Assembly (NCBI GenBank): GCA_003213165.1
Contig: QCNO01000002.1
Location: 7,237 to 71,236 of the forward strand
Direction: 5' to 3'
Length of the DNA stretch: 64,000 nt
Source: OCS155 cluster bacterium AG-426-D23
Lineage (GTDB): Bacteria > Actinomycetota > Acidimicrobiia > Actinomarinales > Actinomarinaceae
In this document: positions 5,542 to 49,599 of the stretch, piece after piece
How the letters are laid out: each line of letters opens with the position of its first letter
How positions within the stretch are numbered: position 1 is the stretch's first letter
The notes under the pieces: generated by a model
Told to the model about the DNA's origin: nothing
The model's database searches: none
What the model saw: the letters and a program-made list of their open reading frames with translations, nothing else
Translations under genes and position numbers: made by a program

Positions 5542-7600
5542 CACACTAAATTTAGACATTGAGGGTATGACATGTGCTGCATGTGCTGCCCGAATAGAGC
5601 GAGTAATCTCAAAACAAGAAGATGTACTAGACGTATCTGTAAGCTTTCCTCTAAAATCTGCAATTGTTGATATTAAAAACAATGAAAGGTTTGATGTTGA
5701 TAATTTAATTAAGAAAGTAAATACTATTGGTTACAAAGCAAAAGAAGCAGACAGTCTTAGATCAAACAAAAAAGTTAAGTTTAAATTTGTTATACCTTTC
5801 TTATCATTATTGCTAACTTATATTCTTAGATTTATATTTGAGGCTGGACTTGATGTCTTATCTTATGCAATAGGCTCATTTGTTATATTGATACTTGGTA
5901 GAAATTTTCATATTTCTGCTTTTAAAAAAATTAAATATCTTGATTTTAATATGGATACACTAATTTCAATTGGTAGCTTAAGCGCGCTTATTATTTCATT
6001 ATTACCAAACACTGTACTTGGTTCAGATTTATCAATCACAAATAATAAAATGTTTCTTGATACTGGTGCTTTCATAGTTTCGTTTATCTTAATTGGTAAA
6101 GCAATAGAAGATAAGGTCATAGAAGAATCTGTAAATGAATCTGAATCAATAAAAAGTAAGATGCCTAAAACTTTAATTGTTGAAAGAAGTGGGCAAGATC
6201 TTGAAGTGCCCATTAAAGAGGTTGTAGTTGGTGATTCATTTAAAGTAAGTCCTGGAGAAATTATTCCTGTTGATGGTCTTGTTTTTGAGGGCTCAACAAC
6301 TGTTGACGAAAGTTTATTAACTGGAGAATCAATTCCTCTAGTCAAAAAATCTGAAGATTTAGTTGTAGGTGGAAGTATAAATTTAGATGGTGCAATTAAA
6401 GTCTCTGTCCAAGAGTCTTACCAGAAATCTACCTACAACATAATTGAAGAATTAATTAGAACGGCTCAAGCAACTAAACCAGAAATTCAAAAATCATTGG
6501 ACAAAGTAACTCAATACTTTGTTCCAATTGTTCTAATAATTAGTGTTTTGACTTTTCTATTTAGATTCTTTATAAGTGATTTTGCGTTGTTAGATGCCTT
6601 AAAAAATTCAATAGCAGTTCTTGTAATTGCATGTCCTTGTGCATTAGGCTTAGCAACTCCAATAGTGTTGTTTAAAACTGCAACTCTGAGTAAAAAAGAT
6701 GGATACTTATTTAAAAATTTCGATATTTTACAAAAATTTGGTGATATAAATACTCTTATTTTTGATAAAACAGGCACTCTTTCTTCTGGTATTTTTAAAA
6801 TATCAAAGATCGAAAACAACAACACTTCTCTAAATGAAGATACCATTTTGCAAATTATTGCAAGTCTTGAAAGCTATTCTCAGCATCCGATTGCAAGAAG
6901 TATTGTTTATGAGGCAGAATTACGAGATTTGAAATTACTTAAAGCTAATGATGTTAAGGAGGTTCCTGGCTTAGGCATACAGGGAATAGTCGATGACAAA
7001 AAAATTGTCATTGAAAAAAATGAAGATTCCAATGAGTCTTCAATCATTGTTAAAATTGACGACGAAAAAATTTACATCTACTTGGAAGAAGAAGTATCCG
7101 TATCATCAAACTTCTTAGATGTACTAAGAGATGAAAAAGAAATAATTATTCTTTCTGGAGATAAAGAAGTTAATGTTGAAAAGTTTGCTAAAAGTATTGG
7201 GATAAAACAATATCATTCAAATAAAACCCCAGAAGCAAAATTAGACTTCATTAAAAATAAACAACTAGAAGAAAAAATTATATATGTTGGAGATGGAGTA
7301 AATGATTCCCCTTCAATAAAACAAGCAGATATTGGTATAACTACCTCTAGTAGTAGTCAAATAGCACAGGTAGCTGGAGATATTTTAATTCACAAGGGAG
7401 GTTTAGACACGATATCTGATATTTTTAAATTATCAAAAAAATCTAAAAGTAGAATCTATCAAAATCTATTCCTTGCTTTTGTTTACAACACCTCGATGAT
7501 TCCATTAGCTGTGTCTGGGGCAATTACACCAAACTTAGCAGCTTTGGCTATGGCACTATCAAGCATTTCAGTTGTGTTAAATTCATCAAGAAAACTATAA
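5507..7600 (+). CDS. copA: Copper-translocating P1B-type ATPase
   Basis: GMTCAAC, TGES, CPC, DKTGT, HP, GDGVND, YN and MALSS motifs. Confidence 0.9.
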   Translation: MNKATQLSSQNNTLNLDIEGMTCAACAARIERVISKQEDVLDVSVSFPLKSAIVDIKNNERFDVDNLIKKVNTIGYKAKEADSLRSNKKVKFKFVIPFLSLLLTYILRFIFEAGLDVLSYAIGSFVILILGRNFHISAFKKIKYLDFNMDTLISIGSLSALIISLLPNTVLGSDLSITNNKMFLDTGAFIVSFILIGKAIEDKVIEESVNESESIKSKMPKTLIVERSGQDLEVPIKEVVVGDSFKVSPGEIIPVDGLVFEGSTTVDESLLTGESIPLVKKSEDLVVGGSINLDGAIKVSVQESYQKSTYNIIEELIRTAQATKPEIQKSLDKVTQYFVPIVLIISVLTFLFRFFISDFALLDALKNSIAVLVIACPCALGLATPIVLFKTATLSKKDGYLFKNFDILQKFGDINTLIFDKTGTLSSGIFKISKIENNNTSLNEDTILQIIASLESYSQHPIARSIVYEAELRDLKLLKANDVKEVPGLGIQGIVDDKKIVIEKNEDSNESSIIVKIDDEKIYIYLEEEVSVSSNFLDVLRDEKEIIILSGDKEVNVEKFAKSIGIKQYHSNKTPEAKLDFIKNKQLEEKIIYVGDGVNDSPSIKQADIGITTSSSSQIAQVAGDILIHKGGLDTISDIFKLSKKSKSRIYQNLFLAFVYNTSMIPLAVSGAITPNLAALAMALSSISVVLNSSRKL

Positions 7601-7643
7601 AAATTTATATTAAATAAATTTATTAAAACATTAATCTTTCATT

Positions 7644-8492
7644 ATGGAAGATGTTGTTTGGTATAGAAAGCCACTTTTATCAGAACCTGTAGCAATACTT
7701 GCCTTTGAAGGATGGAGTGATGCAGGAAATACAGCAACTGGCTGCGTTGAGAATTTAAGTTGCACATATGAAGTGGATCCTTTTGCAGAGCTAAATTCTG
7801 ATTCTTATTACAACTATCAAATGAGAAGGCCGATTGTTGAGGTTAAAGACTTTGGTGAAAGGAACTTTCATTGGCCCCAAACTTCATTCTATTCCATCGA
7901 AGACTACAAACTCAAAAGCGATTTGATTTTGGTTTTTGGAGAAGAGCCATCAATGAGATGGAAGGAATATTCAAGAAATATTACAGAAACTCTTTTAGAT
8001 CTCGGAGTTAAAAAAGCTGTTACCTTAGGAGCTTTTTTTGGACAAGTAGCACATACACTTCCTGTTCCAATTTTCGGTGTAAGTGGAGATCCAACATTTC
8101 ACTCTCGCTTTAATGTACTCAACCCTAATTATTCAGGACCAACAGGCATAACAAGTGTTGTTGGTCAGTCATTAAGAGATAATGGAATTGAGACTTCTGG
8201 TCTTTGGGCTGCTGTTCCGCATTACTTAAGTAGTGGTGGATATCCTAAAGGGATGAGTGCACTTTTAAACAAAACTTCTGAGATATTAAAAATTGATATT
8301 GATGACTCTGGCATACAAAGTGAAGGCCAGCAGTTTGAACTGAAAATAAGTAAAGCTATGGAGAACTCCCAAGACCTAGCTGACTACGTTTCTAAACTTG
8401 AAGAAGCCGAAGTTAGTATTGAAGACAACTTCTCTGAAGACAATTTAGTCCAACAGATTGAAGATTTTTTGAATGAAGAGAGAGAACTCTAA
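7644..8492 (+). CDS. PAC2 family (proteasome assembly chaperone-like) protein
   Basis: AFEGWxDAG, RP, GEEPxxRW, YxGPTGI and WAAVPHY motifs of actinobacterial PAC2. Confidence 0.85.
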   Translation: MEDVVWYRKPLLSEPVAILAFEGWSDAGNTATGCVENLSCTYEVDPFAELNSDSYYNYQMRRPIVEVKDFGERNFHWPQTSFYSIEDYKLKSDLILVFGEEPSMRWKEYSRNITETLLDLGVKKAVTLGAFFGQVAHTLPVPIFGVSGDPTFHSRFNVLNPNYSGPTGITSVVGQSLRDNGIETSGLWAAVPHYLSSGGYPKGMSALLNKTSEILKIDIDDSGIQSEGQQFELKISKAMENSQDLADYVSKLEEAEVSIEDNFSEDNLVQQIEDFLNEEREL

Positions 8493-8588
8493 CTAGACGC
8501 TTTTCTTCTTATGTCTATTTGATTTACGACGTTTACGATATTTATGTTTTGACATTTTCTTACGTCTTTTTTTGATCAAAGATCCCAT
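8493..8588 (-). CDS. 30S ribosomal protein bS22 (AURKAIP1/COX24 domain), 31 aa
   Basis: Hand translation MGSLIKKRRKKMSKHKYRKRRKSNRHKKKSV matches the actinobacterial MGSVIKKRRKRMxKKKHRK family. Below the ORF-track cutoff. Confidence 0.9.
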   Translation of the reverse strand: MGSLIKKRRKKMSKHKYRKRRKSNRHKKKSV

Positions 8589-8659
8589 AAATTAAATTTT
8601 TTTCCTTTTTTCCTAACTGCGAAATTCTAACTGATTCTCATCATTAACTGAAAATCTTT

Positions 8660-9511
8660 TCAAAGTTTTTTAATTTTGCTTAATTTTATTGCATTATTTA
8701 TTGCCATTAAGCCATCATTATCATTTGGAGACCTTCTTAGGGCCCATAGTCCCCAAGTAATCATAGAGAGCATTTCAAAGTACTCAAATTTTTCAATATC
8801 TTCGTCAGACTTTATCCCTATTTCCATTAATGAACTTTTTTTAAATTCTTCGTTATCATCAAATTCATTTTGCCAAAATAAGTCTGCATAATCAAAGTAG
8901 CTATCTCCCATAGATGAGTATTCCCAATCAATAAGAATTGTTTTATTTTCATAGATTACGAAATTTGCATGGTAAAGATCTTGGTGACACGGTACATTTT
9001 TAATTCCAATTTCGTTTATCTTTTTTATAACATTTGAAGCAACTTCAATAGCATCTTTTTCTACTGGGCGAGAAGCTTCTGCAATATTATGAAAAACTTT
9101 TAGAGGTGAAAAATTTTCTTCAAGTACCAAATCTGAATTATGCAATTCATTTAATATATAAAATGCATTAATCCGCATTTCTTTATTTTTAAAATCTTGT
9201 TGCTTATATGTATATATGTCGAAATATTCTGAAATTTTAATTCCAGTAATTTCATCAAAAAGTATAAACGGAAGCGTTAATCCAGCCTCATAAGCTCTAA
9301 TAGAATTAAGCTTTTCAGATTTTCTATTTATAACATCTGGATTTTTTCCGGGAATTCTCAAAACAAACTTTTTATTATCAATGCTTACAACAACTGTATT
9401 ATTTGTTATTCCATCTAAAGGTGAAATGGTGTATTTATTTTCATCTTTAATATTAGAAATTTCATAATCTAAAAATATTTTTACTACTTCACTAGATTCG
9501 ATCATATTCAT
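8660..9511 (-). CDS. Choline/ethanolamine kinase-like phosphotransferase
   Basis: GITN, VLRIPG, INRxxE, PCHQDL, IDWEYS and DPxxD-like (DSYFDYAD) motifs. Start placed at an ATG among 9505/9511/9517 rather than 9706. Confidence 0.8.
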   Translation of the reverse strand: MNMIESSEVVKIFLDYEISNIKDENKYTISPLDGITNNTVVVSIDNKKFVLRIPGKNPDVINRKSEKLNSIRAYEAGLTLPFILFDEITGIKISEYFDIYTYKQQDFKNKEMRINAFYILNELHNSDLVLEENFSPLKVFHNIAEASRPVEKDAIEVASNVIKKINEIGIKNVPCHQDLYHANFVIYENKTILIDWEYSSMGDSYFDYADLFWQNEFDDNEEFKKSSLMEIGIKSDEDIEKFEYFEMLSMITWGLWALRRSPNDNDGLMAINNAIKLSKIKKL

Positions 9512-9527
9512 TATCATAATATAAGTT

Positions 9528-9728
9528 ATGAATGATCCATTTGCACTAGATTTAACAATAATTCTTCTTCTTCTTGGTGTTGGAGCAGCAATGGTAGCTG
9601 GAAATGTTGCGGCGTTACTCAAATCAAGCAAAGAGGGTACTGAAATTTTCGTTACACGAACAATTTTTTTAACAATTGTTGGTCTTGTAATTACTATCTG
9701 GTCCATTGCTTCGTTAATAAACAGATAA
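9528..9728 (+). CDS. Small two-TM membrane protein
   Basis: Two hydrophobic segments (GAAMVAGN; IVGLVITIWSIASL); fills the gap between divergent genes. Confidence 0.65.
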   Translation: MNDPFALDLTIILLLLGVGAAMVAGNVAALLKSSKEGTEIFVTRTIFLTIVGLVITIWSIASLINR

Positions 9729-9773
9729 AAATACTAAAAATAGGTTATGATATTCAAAGAACTAAAGGTTTAA

Positions 9774-10340
9774 ATGTTATCAGACAAAGACATAAAAATA
9801 TCACTAGAGAATAACGAGATAGTGATTTCTCCTTTAGACGAAGCTTACATTCAGCCTTCAAGTATAGATCTAAGAGTTGGAAATGAATTTAGAGTATTTG
9901 AAAACCATAAATATTCTCATATAGATCCAAAAGCAGAGCAAGAAGATTTAACTACTCTGGTTACTGCAACAATTGATGAACCGTTTGTTCTCCATCCAGG
10001 CGAATTTGTTCTTGGAACTACATATGAAAAAGTGACTTTATCAAATAAAGTAGTTGCAAGACTAGAAGGAAAAAGTTCTCTAGGTAGAATTGGGCTATTA
10101 ATTCACTCGACTGCAGGATTCGTAGACCCTGGTTTTTCAGGCTATCTAACACTTGAGCTTTCAAATGTGGCAAATTTACCAATCAAAATTTACCCTGAAA
10201 TGAAAATAGGTCAGATATCTTTCTATTACTTAAATTCTCCCTCTGAATCCGAATATGGTTCAGGAGTATACGGAAGCAAATATCAGGGACAAGAGGGACC
10301 TACTCCAAGCCGTAGCCATAACGATTTTAAAAATAAATGA
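9774..10340 (+). CDS. dcd: dCTP deaminase
   Basis: [34 protein letters not shown] and KYQGQ motifs. Confidence 0.95.
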
Positions 10341-11020
10341 TTCCAGGTATTGGTACCCTAATAAATTCTTTTGCAGTAATTGGTGTAGGCCTATTGAGTA
10401 GATTTTTTATTAAAAAGGAAATTAAAAACTTTGAAAATAATTTACTGCCTCTTGGTTTGTTGGTATTAACTTTGGGAATTAGAGAATCGCTAAAAAGTCC
10501 AGAATTTTTAGTTACACTTTTTGCTGTTTTAATTGGAGCAATTATTGGTACTTATTTAAAAATTGAAGAAAGAATTAAGAGCTTTGGAGAATATCTTCAT
10601 AAAAAATTTGAAAAAGGAGCAGGAGAAAAAAATAAATTTGTTGAAAGTTACTTAACTGCTTCATTAATAGTGGTTACTGGTCCACTGGCAATTGTGGGTC
10701 CATTCTTAGATGTAGTTGAGGGAAACATTGAGCTTTTGTTAATCAAAACCGCGCTTGATTGTTTCTTAGTTTTATTTTTAACTTCGAGTGGTGGTAAAGG
10801 AGCAGGTTATTCAGGGATTTCCATCTTGATATACCAAGGCTTCTTTACTTCATGCGCTTTAGCTATTGGTGGATCGATCGATCAGACTATGTCTGATTCT
10901 ATAGCTGGAATTGGTGGCGTATTGTTAGTAGGAGTTGGAATTAATTTACTTGGAATCAAACAAATTCCCGTTGGAAATTATATTTTGAGTTTATTTATTC
11001 CGTTTTTTCTAACATTTTAA
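10337..11020 (+). CDS. DUF554 family membrane protein
   Basis: GTLIN N-terminus, GPLAIVG, LLIKxxLD and YQG motifs. Confidence 0.8.
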
Positions 11021-11660
11021 ACACTCGAGTTGCTCCTTGGACTCCCTTAAATTGATCAACAAGCTTTTGGGACTCTTCCTCAAACGTACCTTTTACAAAA
11101 TAATATTGCCTAATTGAAAAACAGCGATTTTTGAAATCTATAGCTATGGGCACAAGCGGTATATTTAGGCCTTTTGCCAGATAGTAAAAACCACTTCTAA
11201 ACTCAGACACTGGCTCTGTGCCTGCCTCAGGTGCAATAACTAAAATATAGTTATCTATTTTTTTGAACTCTTCAACTGCTCCATAAATTAGGCCTTTTGA
11301 ATTAACTCTATATACAGGAATTCCACCAAGTTTTAATAAAAGATATTTTTGTAACCACCAAAATGGCCACGGAACACCTAGTCTGTCTAAATTTTTTGAG
11401 ATAGTAAACAAGCTAGGTAATCGAGTAAATATCCATGCAGCACCAAAAAAATTAATTTTTAGATCTAAAGACCAAACTGCTAAAAGAGCATACCAAGCAT
11501 CTCGCATTGCTGTGTGAGGTAAACCAATAAGAATCATTTTTCTTAAATCTGGAATTTCGCCTTTAATATCCCATCTAAATAGTTTCATTAAAAATCTTCC
11601 AAGGGGGCCAAGAATTCTTCTTTTCTTAATTGCTAGGTTGTTATAATTTGTCTCACTCAT
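10995..11660 (-). CDS. 1-acyl-glycerol-3-phosphate acyltransferase-like protein
   Basis: HxxxxD (HTAMRD), GGIPVxR, APE and SGFYYLA motifs. Confidence 0.8.
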   Translation of the reverse strand: MSETNYNNLAIKKRRILGPLGRFLMKLFRWDIKGEIPDLRKMILIGLPHTAMRDAWYALLAVWSLDLKINFFGAAWIFTRLPSLFTISKNLDRLGVPWPFWWLQKYLLLKLGGIPVYRVNSKGLIYGAVEEFKKIDNYILVIAPEAGTEPVSEFRSGFYYLAKGLNIPLVPIAIDFKNRCFSIRQYYFVKGTFEEESQKLVDQFKGVQGATRVFKMLEKTE

Positions 11661-12643
11661 AACTGTGACACATGTTTTGCTATTTGAACTGCATTAAGTG
11701 CTGCACCTTTGAGTAAGTTATCGGAAACAACCCAAAAGTTGAGTATTTTTTTTGATGAAAGACCCTCTCTCATTCTTGATACCAAAACATCATCTCTTCC
11801 CTCAGCATCAAGTGGAGTAGGTAGTGGATCATCCCAATATTCGATGCCATCAAAATTCTTGATTACGTCAATTGCAGACTCTCTTGTAACTTCATTTTCA
11901 AAAACTGCTGAACAGAATGTTCCGTGTCCTGTTTTTACTCCAACCCTAGCGTTTGAAGGCTCTACAATTAAGTCGTCTATAGAAAGTATCTTTCTTGATT
12001 CATTTACAAACTTCATTTCTTCGTCAGAATATCCGTTCTCTAATAAGTTTCCAGCAATTGGAATAACATTTTTCGCAATCGGTCTTGAATAAAAGCCATC
12101 TGAATAGTCATCTTTCAATTCTTCTCCCATTTCAATTTCTCTATTAAGAGAATCCACCGCTTGCGTTCCTGATCCTGATACTGCTTGATACGCGACTGGC
12201 GTAATAGATTTAAGGTCGAATTTATCATGGAGTGGCTTTAAAGCCATAACTAAACCCATAGTTGTACAGTTCGGATTAGCAATTAGTTTTGTATTGCTAT
12301 TTATAGTTTCTTCATTAATTCCATAAACTACTAATGGGACTTCATTGTCATGTCTGAAAGCTGATGAGTTATCAATGACATAAGCTCCATGTTCTACAAA
12401 CTTCTTGGCAAATTCTCTGGATCTATCACCACCAGCTGAAAAAAGGGCAATATCAAATTCTGATATATTTTCATCAATTAACTCTTTAACAATCAACTTA
12501 TCTTTATTTATTTCTAATTCAGTGCCTTTTGATTTATGTGATGCAAAGAAAGTGTATGAAGTGTCTTTCGAAAAATACTCTTCTGATAGATTTATGATTT
12601 TACGACCAACTAATCCAGTTGCCCCAATAATGGCTATTTTCAT
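11657..12643 (-). CDS. asd: Aspartate-semialdehyde dehydrogenase
   Basis: GATGLVG, IDNSSAFR, NPNCTT, YQAVSGSG and DNLLKGAA motifs. Confidence 0.95.
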   Translation of the reverse strand: MKIAIIGATGLVGRKIINLSEEYFSKDTSYTFFASHKSKGTELEINKDKLIVKELIDENISEFDIALFSAGGDRSREFAKKFVEHGAYVIDNSSAFRHDNEVPLVVYGINEETINSNTKLIANPNCTTMGLVMALKPLHDKFDLKSITPVAYQAVSGSGTQAVDSLNREIEMGEELKDDYSDGFYSRPIAKNVIPIAGNLLENGYSDEEMKFVNESRKILSIDDLIVEPSNARVGVKTGHGTFCSAVFENEVTRESAIDVIKNFDGIEYWDDPLPTPLDAEGRDDVLVSRMREGLSSKKILNFWVVSDNLLKGAALNAVQIAKHVSQL

Positions 12644-43394: not shown

Positions 43395-43889
43395 TTGTCG
43401 GTGGCTAAAAAACTTCTCTTTTTCCTTTTAGTAATTTCATGTGGACCAACAGGTAGTGTGGTATCAGAAAATTTCTCTGATGAAAAGGTTGTTGTAAATG
43501 AAGTCTTAGAAACAAAATCTTTAACATCTGAAGAAATATTAACTGAAATCTTTGATGCGTATAAAAATTTTTCAGAAAATCCAGCTTTAACAATTGATAC
43601 TATATGGAATTATGCACATGAAGACAACCGTGAAGCAACAGGCCCCAAAGAAAGGTTTTCAATGATGTTGACTTCTGAACCATACAATTCCATTGTTGAT
43701 CTAAAAGATTATTCTTACGAGGTCATTTTTGAAAGTGATGAAAATATTCATTATGAAGTAAAAGTATTGGCTAAAAACAATAATTATTTTGTGGTTACAT
43801 GGGTGTTTGAAAAAACTTTATGTGAAGAAAAGCCATGTTGGAGAACTATTGGAGTTACTCAACCAAGATTTTTTGATTCTGGTATTTAG
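43395..43889 (+). CDS. Lipoprotein, DUF4864/NTF2-like
   Basis: Lipobox VISC; A...NR..TGP..RF..ML...Y motif; CWRT end. Confidence 0.55.
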   Translation: MSVAKKLLFFLLVISCGPTGSVVSENFSDEKVVVNEVLETKSLTSEEILTEIFDAYKNFSENPALTIDTIWNYAHEDNREATGPKERFSMMLTSEPYNSIVDLKDYSYEVIFESDENIHYEVKVLAKNNNYFVVTWVFEKTLCEEKPCWRTIGVTQPRFFDSGI

Positions 43890-44407
43890 TCGTCTAAATC
43901 TTCTAGTGGGTTTTCAGGTTGGCAAATTTCAAAAGCATTTTGCACAGCTTCGGAAGTAAAATCAATATCTGCATCTCTAAAGGCAAAGAAACCAAACTCG
44001 CCAGGTTTTGGATCGGGAAAGTCTATACCTTGATCTCTCATACATTGAGAAAATTCTAAAGATGCATCAACCAAAGCGGCTTCAACCTCTGGGTCTAAGT
44101 CAAATTGTTCTGGAAGTGCATTTCTTAATATATCTTCACAATTTTCAAATGCACTTTCAAACTCTTCTTCATTTTCAATTTCTAAATTATCAAACTGAGG
44201 GTTCCCATCAATATCAAATGTTGGATCTGGAAAATTAATACCCTCTTCTCTCATACATTGCGCGAAATCTAGTACTCCTTCCTCAAAAGTTATTTCTTCA
44301 TCTACAATTGTTGTTTCTGTTGTAGATTCTATAGTTACAACACCTTGTGACTCTTCACCACCAATGGTGCATGCAGAAAAAATTAATAACAAAAGAAGTA
44401 TTCTTAC
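43886..44407 (-). CDS. Two-repeat Cys-pair lipoprotein (paralog 4); start codon uncertain
   Basis: FSAC lipobox; FAQCMREEGINFPDP...FENC and FSQCMRDQGIDFPDP...FEIC. Confidence 0.75.
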   Translation of the reverse strand, partial: VRILLLLLIFSACTIGGEESQGVVTIESTTETTIVDEEITFEEGVLDFAQCMREEGINFPDPTFDIDGNPQFDNLEIENEEEFESAFENCEDILRNALPEQFDLDPEVEAALVDASLEFSQCMRDQGIDFPDPKPGEFGFFAFRDADIDFTSEAVQNAFEICQPENPLEDLDD

Positions 44408-45588
44408 TTTCTTACTGCCTCTGCTGGTTGAATTTTGGAAGCTTTTATTGCTGGATACACCCCAGATATTGCTCCAATTAATAATGCTAGAAGCACTGCG
44501 CCGAATATTTGCCATACTGGTATTGAGAATACAATATTTGTGTAATTAGTGTAACCCAGTGTAATGCCTGTACCCAAAAGAACCCCTACAAGACCTCCAA
44601 TACCAGACAAAACTACGCTCTCTAATAAAAATTGATATCTAATCTCTCTTCTTGTTGCACCAATTGAACGTCTAACTCCAATTTCCATTCTTCTTTCTAG
44701 AACAGACATGACCATAACATTGGCTATAGCAACCCCTCCAACAAGTAAAGCTACAGACCCTAACCCTAACAATAAATTAGTAAACGCTTCTTCAGCTGCT
44801 TGTTGTGCTTCTAGTGCATCTGACGGACGCGTAACTTCAACTTGGTCAGGATTTTCAGGATTCATCGATGGAGCAAGTACCTCAACCACATCCTCAATGA
44901 AAGTTGGGTTAGCTCTAAGGTATATAGTTGTGGGTTCTTCGTTAATGTCGAAAAGGGTTTTTGCAACACCATATCCAATAAACACAGACCTGTCTAGGTC
45001 AGGATGAATTTTTAACTCTTCTAATATACCAACTACACCAAACCACTCGTTTTCAATTAGTATTTTTGTTGGCTTAGTTAAGTTATTAATTCCTAATCTT
45101 TGAGCTGTTACACTTCCTAAAACTGTTACTGGGATATCAGATAATCCATCTTGAATAAATCTTCCATCAGCTAAATCACCACCAATAACATCTAGTAGTT
45201 CGGCACTAGTAATTATTGTCGAGATGCCGCCACCTTCAAATTCAGAAATAAAATTGCTTCTCCTGACTAATAAGTCTGTCTGTGTAGTTGAAGTAACTTC
45301 TTGGACGGGGCCGATTCTTTCAACCATTCCTAAAACACCTTTAGGGAGTTCTTCTTGGGTCCCAAAAAATCCAGCTTGTGGTGATGCTTTGACTAGATTC
45401 GTACCTAGAGATTCTAAAGTTGAAAGAAGATCTGCTCTTCCAGATGCTGAAATTCCAGACACAGCAACTATTGCCGCAATACCGATACCTATTCCTATAG
45501 AGGTGAGTGTTGCTCTTCCTTTTCTTGCTCGAACACCATACAAAGCTACAAAAAACAAATCTTTAGTTTTTAATCGTTTTTTCTTCAT
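44404..45588 (-). CDS. MacB/FtsX-type ABC transporter permease
   Basis: TM1, large extracellular domain, ANVMxxSVLERRxEIGVRRSIGA, three further TMs, YPAxKA. Confidence 0.92.
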   Translation of the reverse strand: MKKKRLKTKDLFFVALYGVRARKGRATLTSIGIGIGIAAIVAVSGISASGRADLLSTLESLGTNLVKASPQAGFFGTQEELPKGVLGMVERIGPVQEVTSTTQTDLLVRRSNFISEFEGGGISTIITSAELLDVIGGDLADGRFIQDGLSDIPVTVLGSVTAQRLGINNLTKPTKILIENEWFGVVGILEELKIHPDLDRSVFIGYGVAKTLFDINEEPTTIYLRANPTFIEDVVEVLAPSMNPENPDQVEVTRPSDALEAQQAAEEAFTNLLLGLGSVALLVGGVAIANVMVMSVLERRMEIGVRRSIGATRREIRYQFLLESVVLSGIGGLVGVLLGTGITLGYTNYTNIVFSIPVWQIFGAVLLALLIGAISGVYPAIKASKIQPAEAVRK

Positions 45589-46268
45589 TTGCTTACAATT
45601 TTTCCATCTACTAGTTCGATAACTTTTTTGAACATGTTGGCGTGTTCTTGATTGTGGGTAATCATTATGACAGTTTTTCCTTGGTTATTAAGGTCTTTTA
45701 AAATGTTTAAAATATTTATTCCAGATTCTTTATCCAGATTCCCAGTTGGTTCATCCGCTAATACAAATGCTGGATCTTGGACAAGTGCTCTTGCAATTGC
45801 AACTCTTTGTTGCTGTCCACCAGATAATTCTTTTGGAAGGTGAGTTAATCTATCACCTAAACCAACTTGATCTAAAACTTCTGTTGCTTTTTTTAGCCTT
45901 TCTGTTCTTGAAATGCCTTGATAAAGCAGTCCTTCAGCTACGTTTTCTTGAGCAGTTAGCCCAGGTAAAAGAAAGAAACTTTGAAAGATAAATCCTATCT
46001 TTTCACCCCGAAATTTGGAAAGTTCATTATCAGAAAGTTGCGAAACATCACTTTCTTCAATTTCAATTGACCCTTCTGTTATACTATCCAATAATCCAAT
46101 CATGTTAAGTAAAGTAGATTTTCCACTTCCAGATTGACCTACTATCGCTACAAAGTCACCTTCTTCTACCTCAAGAGATACACCATCTAAAGCTCTCACT
46201 GGTGGTGGGCCTTCGTATACTTTGGAAATATTGTTTATAGATATTACAGTTTTAGTACTGGTTTTCAT
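45585..46268 (-). CDS. ABC ATP-binding protein (MacB/LolD type)
   Basis: GQSGSGKST, IGFIFQ, LSGGQQQR and ADEPTGNLD motifs. Confidence 0.95.
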   Translation of the reverse strand: MKTSTKTVISINNISKVYEGPPPVRALDGVSLEVEEGDFVAIVGQSGSGKSTLLNMIGLLDSITEGSIEIEESDVSQLSDNELSKFRGEKIGFIFQSFFLLPGLTAQENVAEGLLYQGISRTERLKKATEVLDQVGLGDRLTHLPKELSGGQQQRVAIARALVQDPAFVLADEPTGNLDKESGINILNILKDLNNQGKTVIMITHNQEHANMFKKVIELVDGKIVSK

Positions 46269-47830
46269 CTTGGAACAACTACGATTTGACCTTCTGAGAT
46301 GTTACCCTTAACTTCAACGAAACCATCAGTAAAGACTCCTATTTCAACAGCAATATAACTGGTATCAACCCCAGACTCACCCTCAAAGGTGCCTCCCTCA
46401 ATTTCTCCATCATAAACTTCTAAGGCATAGCCACCTTCTGCCAAAGCAAGTAATGCATTTACGGGAACATATAATACATTCTGAGAAACTTCGGTCGTTA
46501 CAAATACTTTCACAGGTGCCTGATCATATGCTTCGATTTCTTCAGGATTTAGAACTTCTAATGTTACTTCTATAAATTCTCCTGCTTGCGTTTGTGTTAC
46601 AACTTGATCAATGAATTTAATTACCGTTGGAACTCGTTCATCTGTTGGAAGTTCTATCTGAACACTGTCTCCAAGAGATACTGTTTCCTGGTCTGAGGCA
46701 TCTACTTGAAAAACTACTTCTATTCCGGTTGAAGAAATATTATAAAGAGGTGAATTTAGTGCTACAGCCGATCCGACATCATTTATATATGAACCCACAA
46801 TAACTGAAGTTTTTGAAGCAAAAGCATTAGTGGGGCTAAATGTTTCTGATATAGCGCTTAATTTCAATTCTACCAGTTCTTCTCTGGCTTTATCTAATTC
46901 AGCCTCTCTGTTAACGCCTTCATTGTAAGATTCGAGAGCTTCGTCATATGCTTTCTGAGCATTTTCAATTGCTAGAGCTTCTGTGGCATCAACTCCAGAT
47001 TCTTTTCCTGCTTCTCTGCTCTGAATACGCTCTTGAGCTTTAATATCCTCTTCGTATTGTGCTTTTTTCCCGGCACGAGTCGATTCAGACATAGATTCAT
47101 ACTGAAGTTCATCAATTAAGTTTCGGATTCTTTCAATTTCTGTTTCTGCAGCCTGCCAAGCAGCATTTTCTTTCGTTGCATTTTCTTTTGCATCATCTAA
47201 CAATTTTTTCTTATTATCAACTTCTTTAAGGGTTGTTCCTCCATCAGCAACTACCTCTTCAAGATTTTCAATTTCGTTTTCTTTCGAATTTATTAAAACT
47301 TGTTCGGAGGGTGTAATCTCTGACTTAGTTTCAATTCCATAATCAATATATAAACTATTAAGCATTTGAGATGTTTCTGTATCAAAAATTTCATCTGGTA
47401 CAAAAGAGCTTTCTGCATAACCTAAATAAACTAAAGCTTCTTCAACTTGTTTAACGTCAACACCAGGATCCGAATTTAAATCAAGAGTTCTATAAAAGGG
47501 AGTACTTCCTTCAAGCAGTATTACTGGTTTATTGTCAATAATAAAAAGTACCTCTCCAAAGTTAATTATTGTGCCTTCTTTAGGTAGAAAAGTAACAACT
47601 CCATTGGTTGGTGAGTTAAGAACTTTTTTGTCTGTCTGCCTTAATGTTCCGTTGTACTCTTCTTTTTTTGCTAAGTCACCTTTTTGTATGGCAACTGTAG
47701 TTAGTTCTAAAGTTTTATTATTAGAGGATGTGTCGATATTTTGTGTGCCAAAATAGTATCCGCCATAAGCCAAACCAGCTAATGCAATTAGTATGGAGAG
47801 GTTTTTTAATTTAAATATATTTTTTATCAT
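46265..47830 (-). CDS. Membrane-fusion (adaptor) protein with peptidoglycan-binding insert
   Basis: N-terminal TM, lipoyl-like GVVT..P..G, PG-binding-like GxDVxQxExALxxLGY, long coiled coil, C-terminal VPVNAL...V.IG...DGFVEV. Confidence 0.8.
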   Translation of the reverse strand: MIKNIFKLKNLSILIALAGLAYGGYYFGTQNIDTSSNNKTLELTTVAIQKGDLAKKEEYNGTLRQTDKKVLNSPTNGVVTFLPKEGTIINFGEVLFIIDNKPVILLEGSTPFYRTLDLNSDPGVDVKQVEEALVYLGYAESSFVPDEIFDTETSQMLNSLYIDYGIETKSEITPSEQVLINSKENEIENLEEVVADGGTTLKEVDNKKKLLDDAKENATKENAAWQAAETEIERIRNLIDELQYESMSESTRAGKKAQYEEDIKAQERIQSREAGKESGVDATEALAIENAQKAYDEALESYNEGVNREAELDKAREELVELKLSAISETFSPTNAFASKTSVIVGSYINDVGSAVALNSPLYNISSTGIEVVFQVDASDQETVSLGDSVQIELPTDERVPTVIKFIDQVVTQTQAGEFIEVTLEVLNPEEIEAYDQAPVKVFVTTEVSQNVLYVPVNALLALAEGGYALEVYDGEIEGGTFEGESGVDTSYIAVEIGVFTDGFVEVKGNISEGQIVVVPR

Positions 47831-47893
47831 TGTTCTAATTCAATTAGTTTATTAAATCTACACGCTTTCTGTGAAATTATTTTATTAAGTTTT

Positions 47894-48493
47894 TTATTCA
47901 TCCCATTCATCATCCTTTAATTCATCTGGAAGATTTTCTTCGCATGCTTGCCATGTTTGTACAATTGGATCGTCTTCTCTAAGTTCCCAATCATCATCAA
48001 TATAAGCATCTAACCTAACTTCTCTGTTGAAATAGTTTGGATCAGGTACTTTTGGATAGCCATTTTCTCGAAAACATTTTGCCATGAATAGAGATCTATC
48101 AATCTCTTTTGAAACCTGGACAGGATCTTCAAACTGATTTTCTTCAGCCACACCCCACAAGTTATACTTCAAAGCACATTCCTCAATAATACTCCAAAGT
48201 TCTTGTGCCTCTTGTTCAGTTATTGTTTCAAAATATGAAGCTATAGTCGTATATAGGTCCAGAAAGTTTTTTGGCTCTTTAAATTTATAACCAGACTCAT
48301 TTACACATTGGACAAGAACTAAAGGAGCATCTTCATCTGAAATTTCTTCTCGTTCGTCTGCTAAGTCAACACCCAAAGCAATTGCCTCTTTACCTTTGTC
48401 GGTATCTGCAACAGAGACAACAGCTTGCTCGTCTTGTTGAAAAAAAGAGCATGCTGTTAAAAAGATAAATACAACTGATGCTTTTTTATACAT
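47894..48493 (-). CDS. Two-repeat Cys-pair lipoprotein (paralog 3)
   Basis: Start moved to MYKKASVVFIFLTAC; LVQCVNESG...EEC and MAKCFRENGYPKVPDP...WQAC. Confidence 0.75.
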   Translation of the reverse strand: MYKKASVVFIFLTACSFFQQDEQAVVSVADTDKGKEAIALGVDLADEREEISDEDAPLVLVQCVNESGYKFKEPKNFLDLYTTIASYFETITEQEAQELWSIIEECALKYNLWGVAEENQFEDPVQVSKEIDRSLFMAKCFRENGYPKVPDPNYFNREVRLDAYIDDDWELREDDPIVQTWQACEENLPDELKDDEWDE

Positions 48494-48518
48494 AGGAAAA
48501 TTATAAAGAAACCTAGTC

Positions 48519-49103
48519 TTATCCCCCACCTTGTTCTGGCGGTTCAAGTCCGAGGTCATCAAAGCACTCTGCAGCAGCTTCTCTAATTTGATCTTCAAGA
48601 TATTGTCCAGACTGTACTAATCCAACAAGAATTGGCCTTAGGGGTCTGTCTGCACTTGGGTCTTCAACCTCTATACCTTTTTCCCTCAAACATTGAGCAA
48701 ACTCAAGTTCTGTATCGAGCCTATCTGCAACATCTTCTGGATTTTCAAAATCTGCGTTATCTCCTAGTGGTATATTGTTTTCTTCTGCACATGCTTGAAT
48801 AGTCTCAAAAAGTTGTGTTCTTCCTTTTTCATTAGTTGCAAGAAAAATTGGCGTTAAAACACTTCTAAGACCTTCATCATTTTTTGGATCTTTGACGTCA
48901 TAGCCATTGTCCCTTAAGCATCTTGCCATTAAAAGCTGGGCATCTTCAGGTGATAAATTGTCTTCAATAATATTTTCTACAATTGTTGTAACTGTATTGA
49001 CTGTAGATAGATCTTCTGTGGAAACTACACCTTGTGAACTATCTGGAGCTGAACACGCAGCAATCAAAATAGACATAAAGATTATTAAGCAATTATTTTT
49101 CAT
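48519..49103 (-). CDS. Two-repeat Cys-pair lipoprotein (paralog 2)
   Basis: IAAC lipobox; MARCLRDNGYDVKDP...IQAC and FAQCLREKGIEVEDP...AAEC. Confidence 0.8.
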   Translation of the reverse strand: MKNNCLIIFMSILIAACSAPDSSQGVVSTEDLSTVNTVTTIVENIIEDNLSPEDAQLLMARCLRDNGYDVKDPKNDEGLRSVLTPIFLATNEKGRTQLFETIQACAEENNIPLGDNADFENPEDVADRLDTELEFAQCLREKGIEVEDPSADRPLRPILVGLVQSGQYLEDQIREAAAECFDDLGLEPPEQGGG

Positions 49104-49599
49104 ATCCTAATTCACCATATCCACACTCTTTTAATAATGGAGAAATTTCCTCTTTTGATTTATCTAATTCACTTAAATCTATTTTAGGTTCTTGTTGAGT
49201 TGGGTCTGAGACGTTGATGCCTTTTTCTCTTAAACATTTCGCTAGTTGAAGATTTTCATCATATAGTTTTGCAAGATCATCTGGGTTTGATGAAGATGAA
49301 TCTGACCACAGATTATATTTATTTATACAATAATTAATGTCTTCTCCTAACTGTGATTCCTCATCTTTAGTATTACTTAATTGACTAATAGTTGTTTTCA
49401 AGTCTTGTATATCAAAAGGGGTTGCAATGTTGTAACCCTTTTCTTCATTTAAACATTGAGTTAAAACGATCGGATAGTCTTCTTCTGCAATTACTAAAGA
49501 AGTGGTCGTGGTATCTGTTAGAGAAGCTACTCCTTCATTACTGGTTGTTGAGCATAAGTTTATAAAAAGAATAAAAATTAAAAGATTTACTTTTTTCAA
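49093..49599 (-). CDS. Two-repeat Cys-pair lipoprotein (paralog 1)
   Basis: Signal peptide with Cys16; LTQCLNEEKG...NYC and LAKCLREKGINVSDP...KEC. Confidence 0.75.
   Translation of the reverse strand: MKKVNLLIFILFINLCSTTSNEGVASLTDTTTTSLVIAEEDYPIVLTQCLNEEKGYNIATPFDIQDLKTTISQLSNTKDEESQLGEDINYCINKYNLWSDSSSSNPDDLAKLYDENLQLAKCLREKGINVSDPTQQEPKIDLSELDKSKEEISPLLKECGYGELGYEK

Follow-up and report, generated by a model that had tools for sequence, protein, structure and literature searches.

In the 64,000-nucleotide stretch of the genome of the OCS155 cluster bacterium AG-426-D23 analysed in our study (contig QCNO01000002.1, positions 7,237 to 71,236 of the forward strand; hereafter the window), four small lipoproteins with two cysteine-pair repeats each, L1 to L4, are encoded in one run with a pump. 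The locus encodes a MacAB-like (type VII ATP-binding cassette, ABC) pump in which the ATPase and the permease, the latter of MacB type, are separate proteins, and whose adaptor is anchored in the membrane and carries a peptidoglycan-binding-like domain. This pump is a member of a known MacAB-like kind; the lipoprotein family is unnamed and has neither a Pfam model nor a known fold. Across Actinobacteria the family immediately precedes these pump genes, which makes it a probable additional component of the pump that has so far gone unrecognised; to the more specific reading followed here, that the Cys-repeat lipoprotein would be a dedicated extracytoplasmic accessory subunit of that pump, we give about even chances.

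In regard to the distribution of the family, a profile built from the heads of the four lipoproteins was searched against the own genome of the bacterium, genomes of its class and 1.84 billion representative proteins. In the own genome it finds four copies only, all in this locus (L1 match at E 8.2e-51); of the representative proteins, 2886 match at E <= 1e-3 and 434 at E <= 1e-10. Two to six matches were present in 23 of the 24 genomes of the genus, the genome without a match being 77% complete, and weaker matches occur in six of 16 genomes of the class outside the genus. A pattern scan of one genome per species gave at least 602 matches, at least 578 of them confirmed, from which the best 80 loci were kept with 10-kb flanks and scored with hidden Markov models built from the window genes and three related loci. 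The actinobacterial part of these loci covers Acidimicrobiia, Nitriliruptorales, Micromonosporaceae, Solirubrobacteraceae, Thermoleophilaceae, Amycolatopsis, Microbacterium, Nocardioides and Actinomadura, and the set also includes Chloroflexota, Dormiibacterota and one metagenome-assembled genome labelled Burkholderiales. In the latter (L061) the complete cassette lies on an 18.6-kb contig, which may reflect a binning error or a transfer.

The adaptor gene follows directly downstream of the lipoprotein gene, on the same strand and at E < 1e-25, in 79 of the 80 loci; the remaining one, L088, has a fragmented adaptor gene. The ATPase and the permease are each found in 78, the misses falling at contig ends (L041, L066) and at L088. 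An OmpR-type response regulator and a histidine kinase stand directly upstream in 74 loci (divergent in 56, co-directional in 18); elsewhere the pair is slightly farther away (L027) or the locus is cut by a contig end (four loci), and only L080 is without it. No other recurrent neighbour was found, the largest cluster of flanking open reading frames (ORFs) being present in five of the 80 loci. Outside the genus the family is single-copy, with two copies in one of the 80 loci (L041) and a copy downstream of the permease in none. At the level of the class, an orthologous permease (at least 528 bits, the next best scoring 293) is present in exactly those five of the 16 genomes that have a Cys-repeat match beside a peptidoglycan-binding adaptor, and of the other genomes ten have neither permease nor lipoprotein and one has a weak unlinked match only. 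The link of the family to a peptidoglycan-binding adaptor and MacB, proposed in the original prediction made for this stretch, is thus found in all 80 sampled loci and in the class-level co-occurrence.

In the window, the seven ORFs lie head to tail on the minus strand in the order L1-L2-L3-adaptor-ATPase-permease-L4, so that the single run originally predicted is borne out, with the ORFs where they had been placed:

49093..49599, minus strand: L1, 168 amino acids, TTG start; Cys-repeat lipoprotein family, non-canonical lipobox INLC; a fast-evolving paralogue
48519..49103, minus strand: L2, 194 amino acids; lipobox IAAC and tether motif GVVS; two repeats of three helices, each holding a Cys pair
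47894..48493, minus strand: L3, 199 amino acids when read from the ATG at 48493, with lipobox LTAC; within the genus, the paralogue with the highest conservation
46265..47830, minus strand: adaptor (periplasmic-adaptor or membrane fusion protein), 521 amino acids; N-terminal anchor, beta domains, PG_binding_1-like domain and long coiled-coil hairpin
47315..47470, minus strand: adaptor residues 121-172, peptidoglycan-binding-like helical domain, from a sub-threshold Pfam match and alignment to homologues
46841..47314, minus strand: adaptor residues 173-330, coiled-coil insertion found only in the genus, from AlphaFold2 helices and alignment
45585..46268, minus strand: ABC ATPase of MacB/LolD/FtsE type, 227 amino acids; Pfam ABC_tran
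44404..45588, minus strand: MacB-type permease, 394 amino acids; MacB_PCD between transmembrane segments TM1 and TM2, FtsX C-terminal domain
43886..44515, minus strand: L4, 209 amino acids from the ATG at 44515; lipobox FSAC; first 112 nucleotides inside the permease gene, in the -1 frame

The true start of L3 is the ATG at 48493, directly after the L2 stop, the TTG at 48598 of the ORF list being an upstream extension into L2.

Neither a regulator nor an outer-membrane duct adjoins the module in the window, as judged by the ORF list and Pfam. To this extent the original remark on their absence is true, but the lack of a regulator is peculiar to this genome, the family being normally accompanied by a two-component system. 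In two other loci of the genus the regulator-kinase pair, together with about 3 kb, is found between L1 and L2 on the opposite strand (L109 of G022, 6842-11951; L114 of G003, 6804-9438), and in G009 and G010 the regulator is located upstream of the locus. In the window L1 and L2 overlap by 11 nucleotides, and the block seen in G022 and G003 is therefore missing here. The own genome, a 964-kb assembly that is 86% complete, contains three FtsX-type permeases in all and one OmpR-type regulator-kinase pair (G000 C1:93041-94421), which is only 35-37% identical to the cassette pairs; the orthologous two-component system of the cassette is absent.

This distribution bears on the possibility that the lipoprotein is a helper of the histidine kinase and reports the state of the envelope or of the pump to the two-component system. 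Kinase accessories of this sort are LpqB for MtrB and CseA for CseC. In its favour, the two-component system and the pump flank the lipoprotein gene in 74-75 of the 80 loci, and the cassette kinase has an extracytoplasmic stretch ahead of its HAMP domain. However, a genome without the orthologous two-component system that still has four lipoprotein copies ties the lipoproteins to the pump and not to the regulator, and in divergent layouts the lipoprotein gene is always on the pump strand, as its first gene. Distance matrices, compared for the 59 of 80 loci in which all six genes were usable, show that all six cassette genes co-diverge (r 0.59-0.95), and the cassette is therefore inherited as a unit; once the other genes are controlled for, the partial correlation of the lipoprotein is lowest with the regulator genes (0.01, 0.05) against 0.11-0.16 with the pump genes, a small margin. 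Because the regulator was lost while four lipoproteins were kept, we consider a role as kinase helper quite improbable.

The four lipoproteins themselves are strongly diverged, L2-L4 being 24-34% identical to L1 and all four mutually only about 30% identical. Their alignment nevertheless holds 15 invariant columns, including all four Cys and the R, G and D-P positions, and the halves of the domain are homologous, with repeat 1 matching repeat 2 at an hhalign probability of 99.7% (E 4.6e-26), so that the four can be taken as homologous two-repeat proteins, as had been proposed. A canonical lipobox follows the pattern [LVI][ASTVI][GAS]C. Read from the sequence, the lipobox is canonical in L2 (IAAC) and L3 (LTAC) and nearly so in L4 (FSAC), for which the earlier description of a lipobox-like Cys holds, but it is non-canonical in L1 (INLC); the putative lipidated Cys is kept in every L1-L4 orthologue listed. 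Members from high-GC genomes show the whole plan, with a lipobox or membrane anchor, G-V-A-S-L and twice FAxCMRxxGxDxPDP...AxxAC. A distant relative without a pump (L022, G039:C21, 7885-8739; E 6.8e-8) adjoins lgt (6552-7841), the prolipoprotein diacylglyceryl transferase gene.

The AlphaFold2 model of mature L2, made from a 123-row alignment, has a mean predicted local distance difference test score (pLDDT) of 85.3 and comprises six helices in two three-helix units, preceded by a low-confidence tether of about 33 residues. The heads are thus helical with four conserved Cys, in agreement with the original expectation. Neither Pfam nor NCBIfam gave a family above cut-off for L1-L4, and the same was true of the distant members tested (13 with Pfam, 8 with NCBIfam); a Pfam match of L1 to HEPN_RES_NTD1 at E 0.01 was rejected as sub-threshold noise. 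A sequence profile search of the PDB with the lipoprotein family returned a best E of 0.019, solely to lipoprotein signal peptides, and all 30 of the 30 nearest clusters in the Protein Atlas were without a Pfam family in both lookups. Foldseek with the L2 model found no match at E <= 1e-3, its weak rows including insect D7/odorant-binding proteins, and the best VIA-align match (Z 5.5) was to generic helical bundles, which does not amount to a new fold.

The composition of the heads could also be explained by an envelope protein with an activity of its own, for instance in buffering cations or metals or in redox reactions through its Cys, that is merely co-regulated with the pump and does not bind it. 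The mature proteins have an isoelectric point (pI) of about 4 (4.05-4.17) and exactly four Cys each, conserved throughout, and the motif CMREHG, frequent in high-GC members, contains Cys, Met and His. Furthermore, the cassette two-component system scores best against the heavy-metal subfamily models of NCBIfam, though below their cut-offs (CopR/CusR and CopS/CusS models, L024, 7905-9897; 191.9 bits against 279 and 204.4 against 293). However, neither Met nor His is conserved in the motif, the genus having CLRDNG, CVNESG and CFRENG instead, and a metal-binding reading of CMREHG was rejected for this reason. The Cys pairs, spaced on helix 1 and helix 3 of each repeat, fit structural disulfides. 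Mere co-regulation is improbable in our view because the gene order is strictly fixed, and this across phyla.

A second conserved element lies between the membrane and the head. About ten residues past the predicted lipidated Cys, the family has a short motif x-V-[AV]-[ST]-[LIV]. In 114 of 147 family proteins the lipobox was found by script, and in 85 of these 114 V-[AV]-[ST]-[LIVM] starts at Cys+10 (quartiles 10/10/11); it is missing from the short-linker lineage of the Solirubrobacteraceae. L1-L4 retain it at Cys+8 to +10 despite their heads being only about 30% identical. The [GA]V[VA][ST] linker first noticed in the four window proteins is therefore real and family-wide among the 147 proteins checked, and its constant distance from the membrane suggests a docking partner that is itself held at that level.

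In regard to the pump, the ATPase matches Pfam ABC_tran at E 9.3e-36, and its nearest NCBIfam models are DarD (233.6 bits), MacB, LolD and FtsE; all of these scores are below cut-off, and therefore no named equivalog applies. The permease matches FtsX (PF02687; E 1.5e-21, 77.1 bits against a cut-off of 25.5) and MacB_PCD (PF12704; E 1.7e-15) over residues 27-229, which lie outside the cytoplasm between TM1 and TM2. ATPase and permease are separate genes here, and the equivalog for the fused MacB of Escherichia coli (NF007826, cut-off 966 bits) is reached by neither (231.8 bits for the ATPase, 85 for the permease). Compared with its counterparts in the 69 loci outside the genus, the permease shows 40-50% identity.

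The adaptor model (pLDDT 82.7) contains helices at residues 174-195, 201-244, 249-273 and 282-327. No match to an HlyD-family Pfam model was obtained for the window adaptor even at E <= 10; the fold typical of such adaptors, with beta-barrel, lipoyl and membrane-proximal domains and a helical hairpin, was confirmed by Foldseek, with 72 PDB chains at E <= 1e-3, including AcrA (2.8e-17) and MacA of MacAB-TolC (5nik_D, 8.6e-16). The N- and C-terminal parts of the protein also match by BLASTP (E 4e-17 and 2e-14) the adaptor of another genome of the class (L020), which carries two PG_binding_1 domains and HlyD_3 (E 3.3e-7). The peptidoglycan-binding insert of the original description does not pass PG_binding_1 (PF01471) in the window protein itself, scoring 12.8 bits (E 0.14) against a cut-off of 23 bits, but adaptors of five related loci pass at E 1.2e-6 to 7.1e-23, and the window segment aligns column for column to the domain of these homologues, with a family consensus of DVxQLExNLxALGY. 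The long coiled coil, likewise part of that description, is seen in the helices spanning 174-327; it corresponds to an insertion at residues 173-330 that is specific to the genus, with 158-211 residues in 19 genus adaptors against 6-7 in 71 others.

A three-chain model, with an alignment supplied for every chain, was used to look for a possible contact between lipoprotein and pump; it combined mature L2 with the full-length adaptor and with residues 45-272 of the permease, the ectodomain. The median complex score was 0.47 (runs 0.47, 0.53 and 0.34) against 0.01 for the best of three controls, with a verdict of weak support. Exchanging the adaptor for an unrelated protein brought the score down to 0.00. 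Agreement between the runs covers at least 49% of contacts, with a partner pLDDT of 64 or more. Calibration of the tool had 116 of 157 solved complexes reaching the mark, against 2 of 215 mismatched pairs; with scores of 0.60 or less, only 18 of the 157 solved complexes did so, together with both passing mismatches. We take the prediction as a modest hint that the adaptor is what the lipoprotein contacts. Modelling with the permease ectodomain had been suggested at the outset; the weak complex score points to the adaptor, a partner absent from that proposal.

It is also possible that the lipoprotein is cargo, extracted from the membrane by the MacB-type transporter, in the way that LolCDE handles lipoproteins and Aat/Cex acylated proteins, and passed by the adaptor into or through the wall. 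It is the sole conserved gene of the cassette that is neither pump nor regulator, its conserved motif near the lipid anchor could serve recognition, and lipoprotein-handling MacB-type machines exist, namely LolCDE and Aat, according to passages of PMC5985334 and PMC7943197. On the other hand, the NCBIfam Lol models stay far under their cut-offs (lolCE 38.7 bits against 362, LolC 25.8 against 473, LolE 24.8 against 439), neither an acyltransferase nor a carrier protein is conserved in the cassette, and the weak complex score hinges on the adaptor and not on the permease ectodomain, in a model that is without the transmembrane cavity. The carrier organisms are presumably monoderm, with no second membrane to take the lipid anchor, and for this reason we regard cargo as rather unlikely.

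Several observations weigh against the accessory-subunit reading as well. The complex score of the three-chain model lies in the weak band and comes with no contacts given, and a job of three chains with their own alignments differs from the calibration. The distance matrices show no preferred partner of the lipoprotein, the partial correlations controlling for the ATPase being 0.31 with the adaptor, 0.31 with the permease, 0.25 with the regulator and 0.28 with the kinase. Selected as the best matches to a single sequence pattern, the 80 loci do not sample the family at random, and three of the eight class-level matches (E 1.3e-5 to 6.8e-8) are not at a pump. Finally, the head has no informative structural match or recognisable ligand site by Foldseek and VIA-align, the lipobox of L1 is non-canonical, and lipidation and disulfides are inferred only. 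The two fold comparisons likewise gave no pointer to the carriers, substrates or decoys for cationic peptides or lipids that had been proposed originally.

If the lipoprotein is indeed an accessory subunit, its lipid would anchor it in the outer leaflet beside the pump, where it would dock on the adaptor through the tether motif at its fixed height, through the head, or through both. There it could gate the entry of substrate or deliver substrate to the chamber that the adaptor and the MacB ectodomain enclose. MacB mechanotransmission, driven by ATP, would next push the substrate off the membrane and into the wall that holds the adaptor, or through it. In the genus, the canonical-like L4 is apparently linked to the permease by gene overlap, and the diverged upstream copies L1-L3 keep the tether but differ in the surface of the head; these copies may represent exchangeable heads on one pump.

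Within the genus, eighteen loci were examined, two of them cut by contig ends. Four copies, the coiled-coil insertion in the adaptor and an L4 downstream of the permease are specific to the genus, and the predicted rise of copy number in genomes of roughly 1 Mb is seen as 2-4 copies against one elsewhere. L1, L2, L3 and L4 form stable orthologous groups, all four being present in 11 of the 18 loci: L1 orthologues are 43-100% identical in 15 loci, L3 is 72-99% identical in 12 and missing from four (L115-L118), and L4, the paralogue most like canonical family members, is found in all 18. The median number of nonsynonymous substitutions per site (dN) against the window copies is 0.23 for L1, 0.23 for L2, 0.185 for the adaptor and 0.14 for L4, and 0.065 for L3, 0.057 for the ATPase and 0.052 for the permease. 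The ratio of dN to the synonymous rate (omega) of L1-L4 is about 0.03-0.19, a rough estimate as dS is saturated, and indicates purifying selection with nothing pointing to positive selection; as all four copies are under purifying selection, there is no sign of an arms-race decoy. In a quick tree, with support from the Shimodaira-Hasegawa-like approximate likelihood ratio test (SH-aLRT) only and with composition bias flagged, L1-L3 form one clade (support 100) and L4 falls among the canonical high-GC sequences.

L4 further stands out by its start. Its hydrophobic signal region begins right at the permease stop, and in the window and 13 of the 18 genus loci there is no ATG, GTG or TTG at a usable distance between that stop and the signal region. 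In the genus loci without such a proximal start, an ATG 109 nucleotides inside the permease gene is conserved, and 56-58 codons ahead of the Cys are open in the L4 frame, which is -1 relative to the permease; in the two loci with a normal ATGA overlap start (G003, G009) this upstream frame is closed and only 1-4 codons are open. Over its last 37 codons the permease has a synonymous third-position diversity of 0.303, below all 31 other windows of 37 codons (mean 0.407, standard deviation 0.040, minimum 0.323). Three points, the open frame where the proximal start is missing, its closure in the ATGA loci and the minimum of synonymous diversity in the overlap, indicate that L4 probably starts at 44515 and shares 112 nucleotides with the permease gene. 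A fusion of permease and L4 by -1 frameshifting was also considered. The permease ends in (C/A)GA AA(G/A) TAA (AGA AAG TAA in the window, CGA AAG TAA in relatives), which we take to resemble the -1 shift site of Bacillus subtilis cdd; judged by frame openness and synonymous diversity, such a fusion is less likely than a start at the conserved ATG. In one locus (L119 of G010, 8223-8722) L4 is split in two adjacent frames, by a frameshift or a sequencing error.

The surroundings of the module, in a window with 30-37% G+C, comprise an Acyl_transf_3 protein, unknowns and a GINT1_N/GH43-like protein according to Pfam. Convergent to L4, with a stop-codon overlap of a few bases, is a plus-strand ORF of 164 amino acids (43395-43889) whose N-terminus, LLVISCG, resembles that of a lipoprotein; it gave no Pfam or NCBIfam match. 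A scan of the locus for promoters and terminators found sites no more numerous than in shuffles. Contigs from RNA libraries of four marine studies match L4, permease, ATPase, adaptor, L3 and L2 at 90-99% identity and span the junctions L4/permease, permease/ATPase, ATPase/adaptor and L3/L2, while positions 49208-49411, inside L1, are without such cover in all four runs; as contigs, for which DNA carry-over is possible, they prove neither transcription nor a single transcript.

Comparison with characterised systems places the pump among relatives with an adaptor in Gram-positive bacteria. In MacB-type transporters, ATP-driven movement of an extracytoplasmic domain acts on substrates outside the membrane, and the Gram-positive adaptor forms a channel over the transporter that is thought to carry compounds off the membrane (sections of PMC5985334 and PMC5768738). 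What Gram-positive MacAB-like pumps expel, and why they have an adaptor without an outer membrane, is presented as an open question in the relevant part of PMC5985334. A comparable architecture is that of Spr0693-Spr0694-Spr0695 of the monoderm Streptococcus pneumoniae. Its ATPase is likewise separate, its MacB-type permease has an extracellular domain between TM1 and TM2, and its adaptor is anchored in the membrane. For that operon the portions of PMC5768738 consulted mention no lipoprotein gene, whereas here the lipoprotein, the peptidoglycan-binding adaptor and the usual two-component system are added. Bacillus YknWXYZ is also a Gram-positive MacAB-like pump with a fourth accessory, the co-transcribed YknW, an extra membrane protein that affects YknXYZ, and its adaptor YknX, in purified form, binds peptidoglycan; unlike L1-L4, YknW is a polytopic membrane protein in the account excerpted from PMC5985334, and no relation of sequence or fold to the Cys-repeat lipoproteins was found.

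Lipid-anchored partners of such pumps are also known. In its general idea the precedent nearest to the present case is YbjP, a small lipoprotein recently recognised on MacAB-TolC and AcrAB-TolC of E. coli (PDB 9qgy, 9tg4, 9v53), but it binds the outer-membrane duct TolC, which is absent here (parts of PMC13082787 and PMC13095208). None of the YbjP entries is among the matches listed for the L2 model in Foldseek or VIA-align. YbjP is not known to be encoded in the pump operon. LolCDE and Aat/Cex likewise combine a MacB-type ABC transporter with a lipid-anchored protein, yet they serve delivery to the outer membrane and Lol is without an adaptor, as far as the pertinent passages of PMC5985334 and PMC7943197 go. 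No published description of the cassette or of the lipoprotein family was found in a full-text literature search that did not include subscription journals and supplements, in line with the original assumption that no function had been assigned to the operon.

There is also a small chance that the lipoproteins are not passive subunits and act as the machine's own cargo or as exchangeable substrate-capture heads. If so, monoderm Actinobacteria would have a wall-anchored MacB machine for a private lipoprotein, which would extend a Lol/Aat-like principle outside diderms, and the marine genus would have multiplied the heads and widened the range of one pump in a 1-Mb genome. Independently of this, a six-gene cassette consisting of a sensor pair, a private lipoprotein, a wall-binding adaptor and a MacB pump recurs in Actinobacteria and Chloroflexota, and it offers a concrete fourth component for testing in culturable carriers such as Dactylosporangium, Amycolatopsis, Actinopolymorpha and Catelliglobosispora, at a time when pumps of E. 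coli have just been found to have a lipoprotein partner of their own in YbjP. That a genome of roughly 1 Mb spends 5.7 kb on the module and keeps four lipoprotein copies argues that the module matters in the open ocean.

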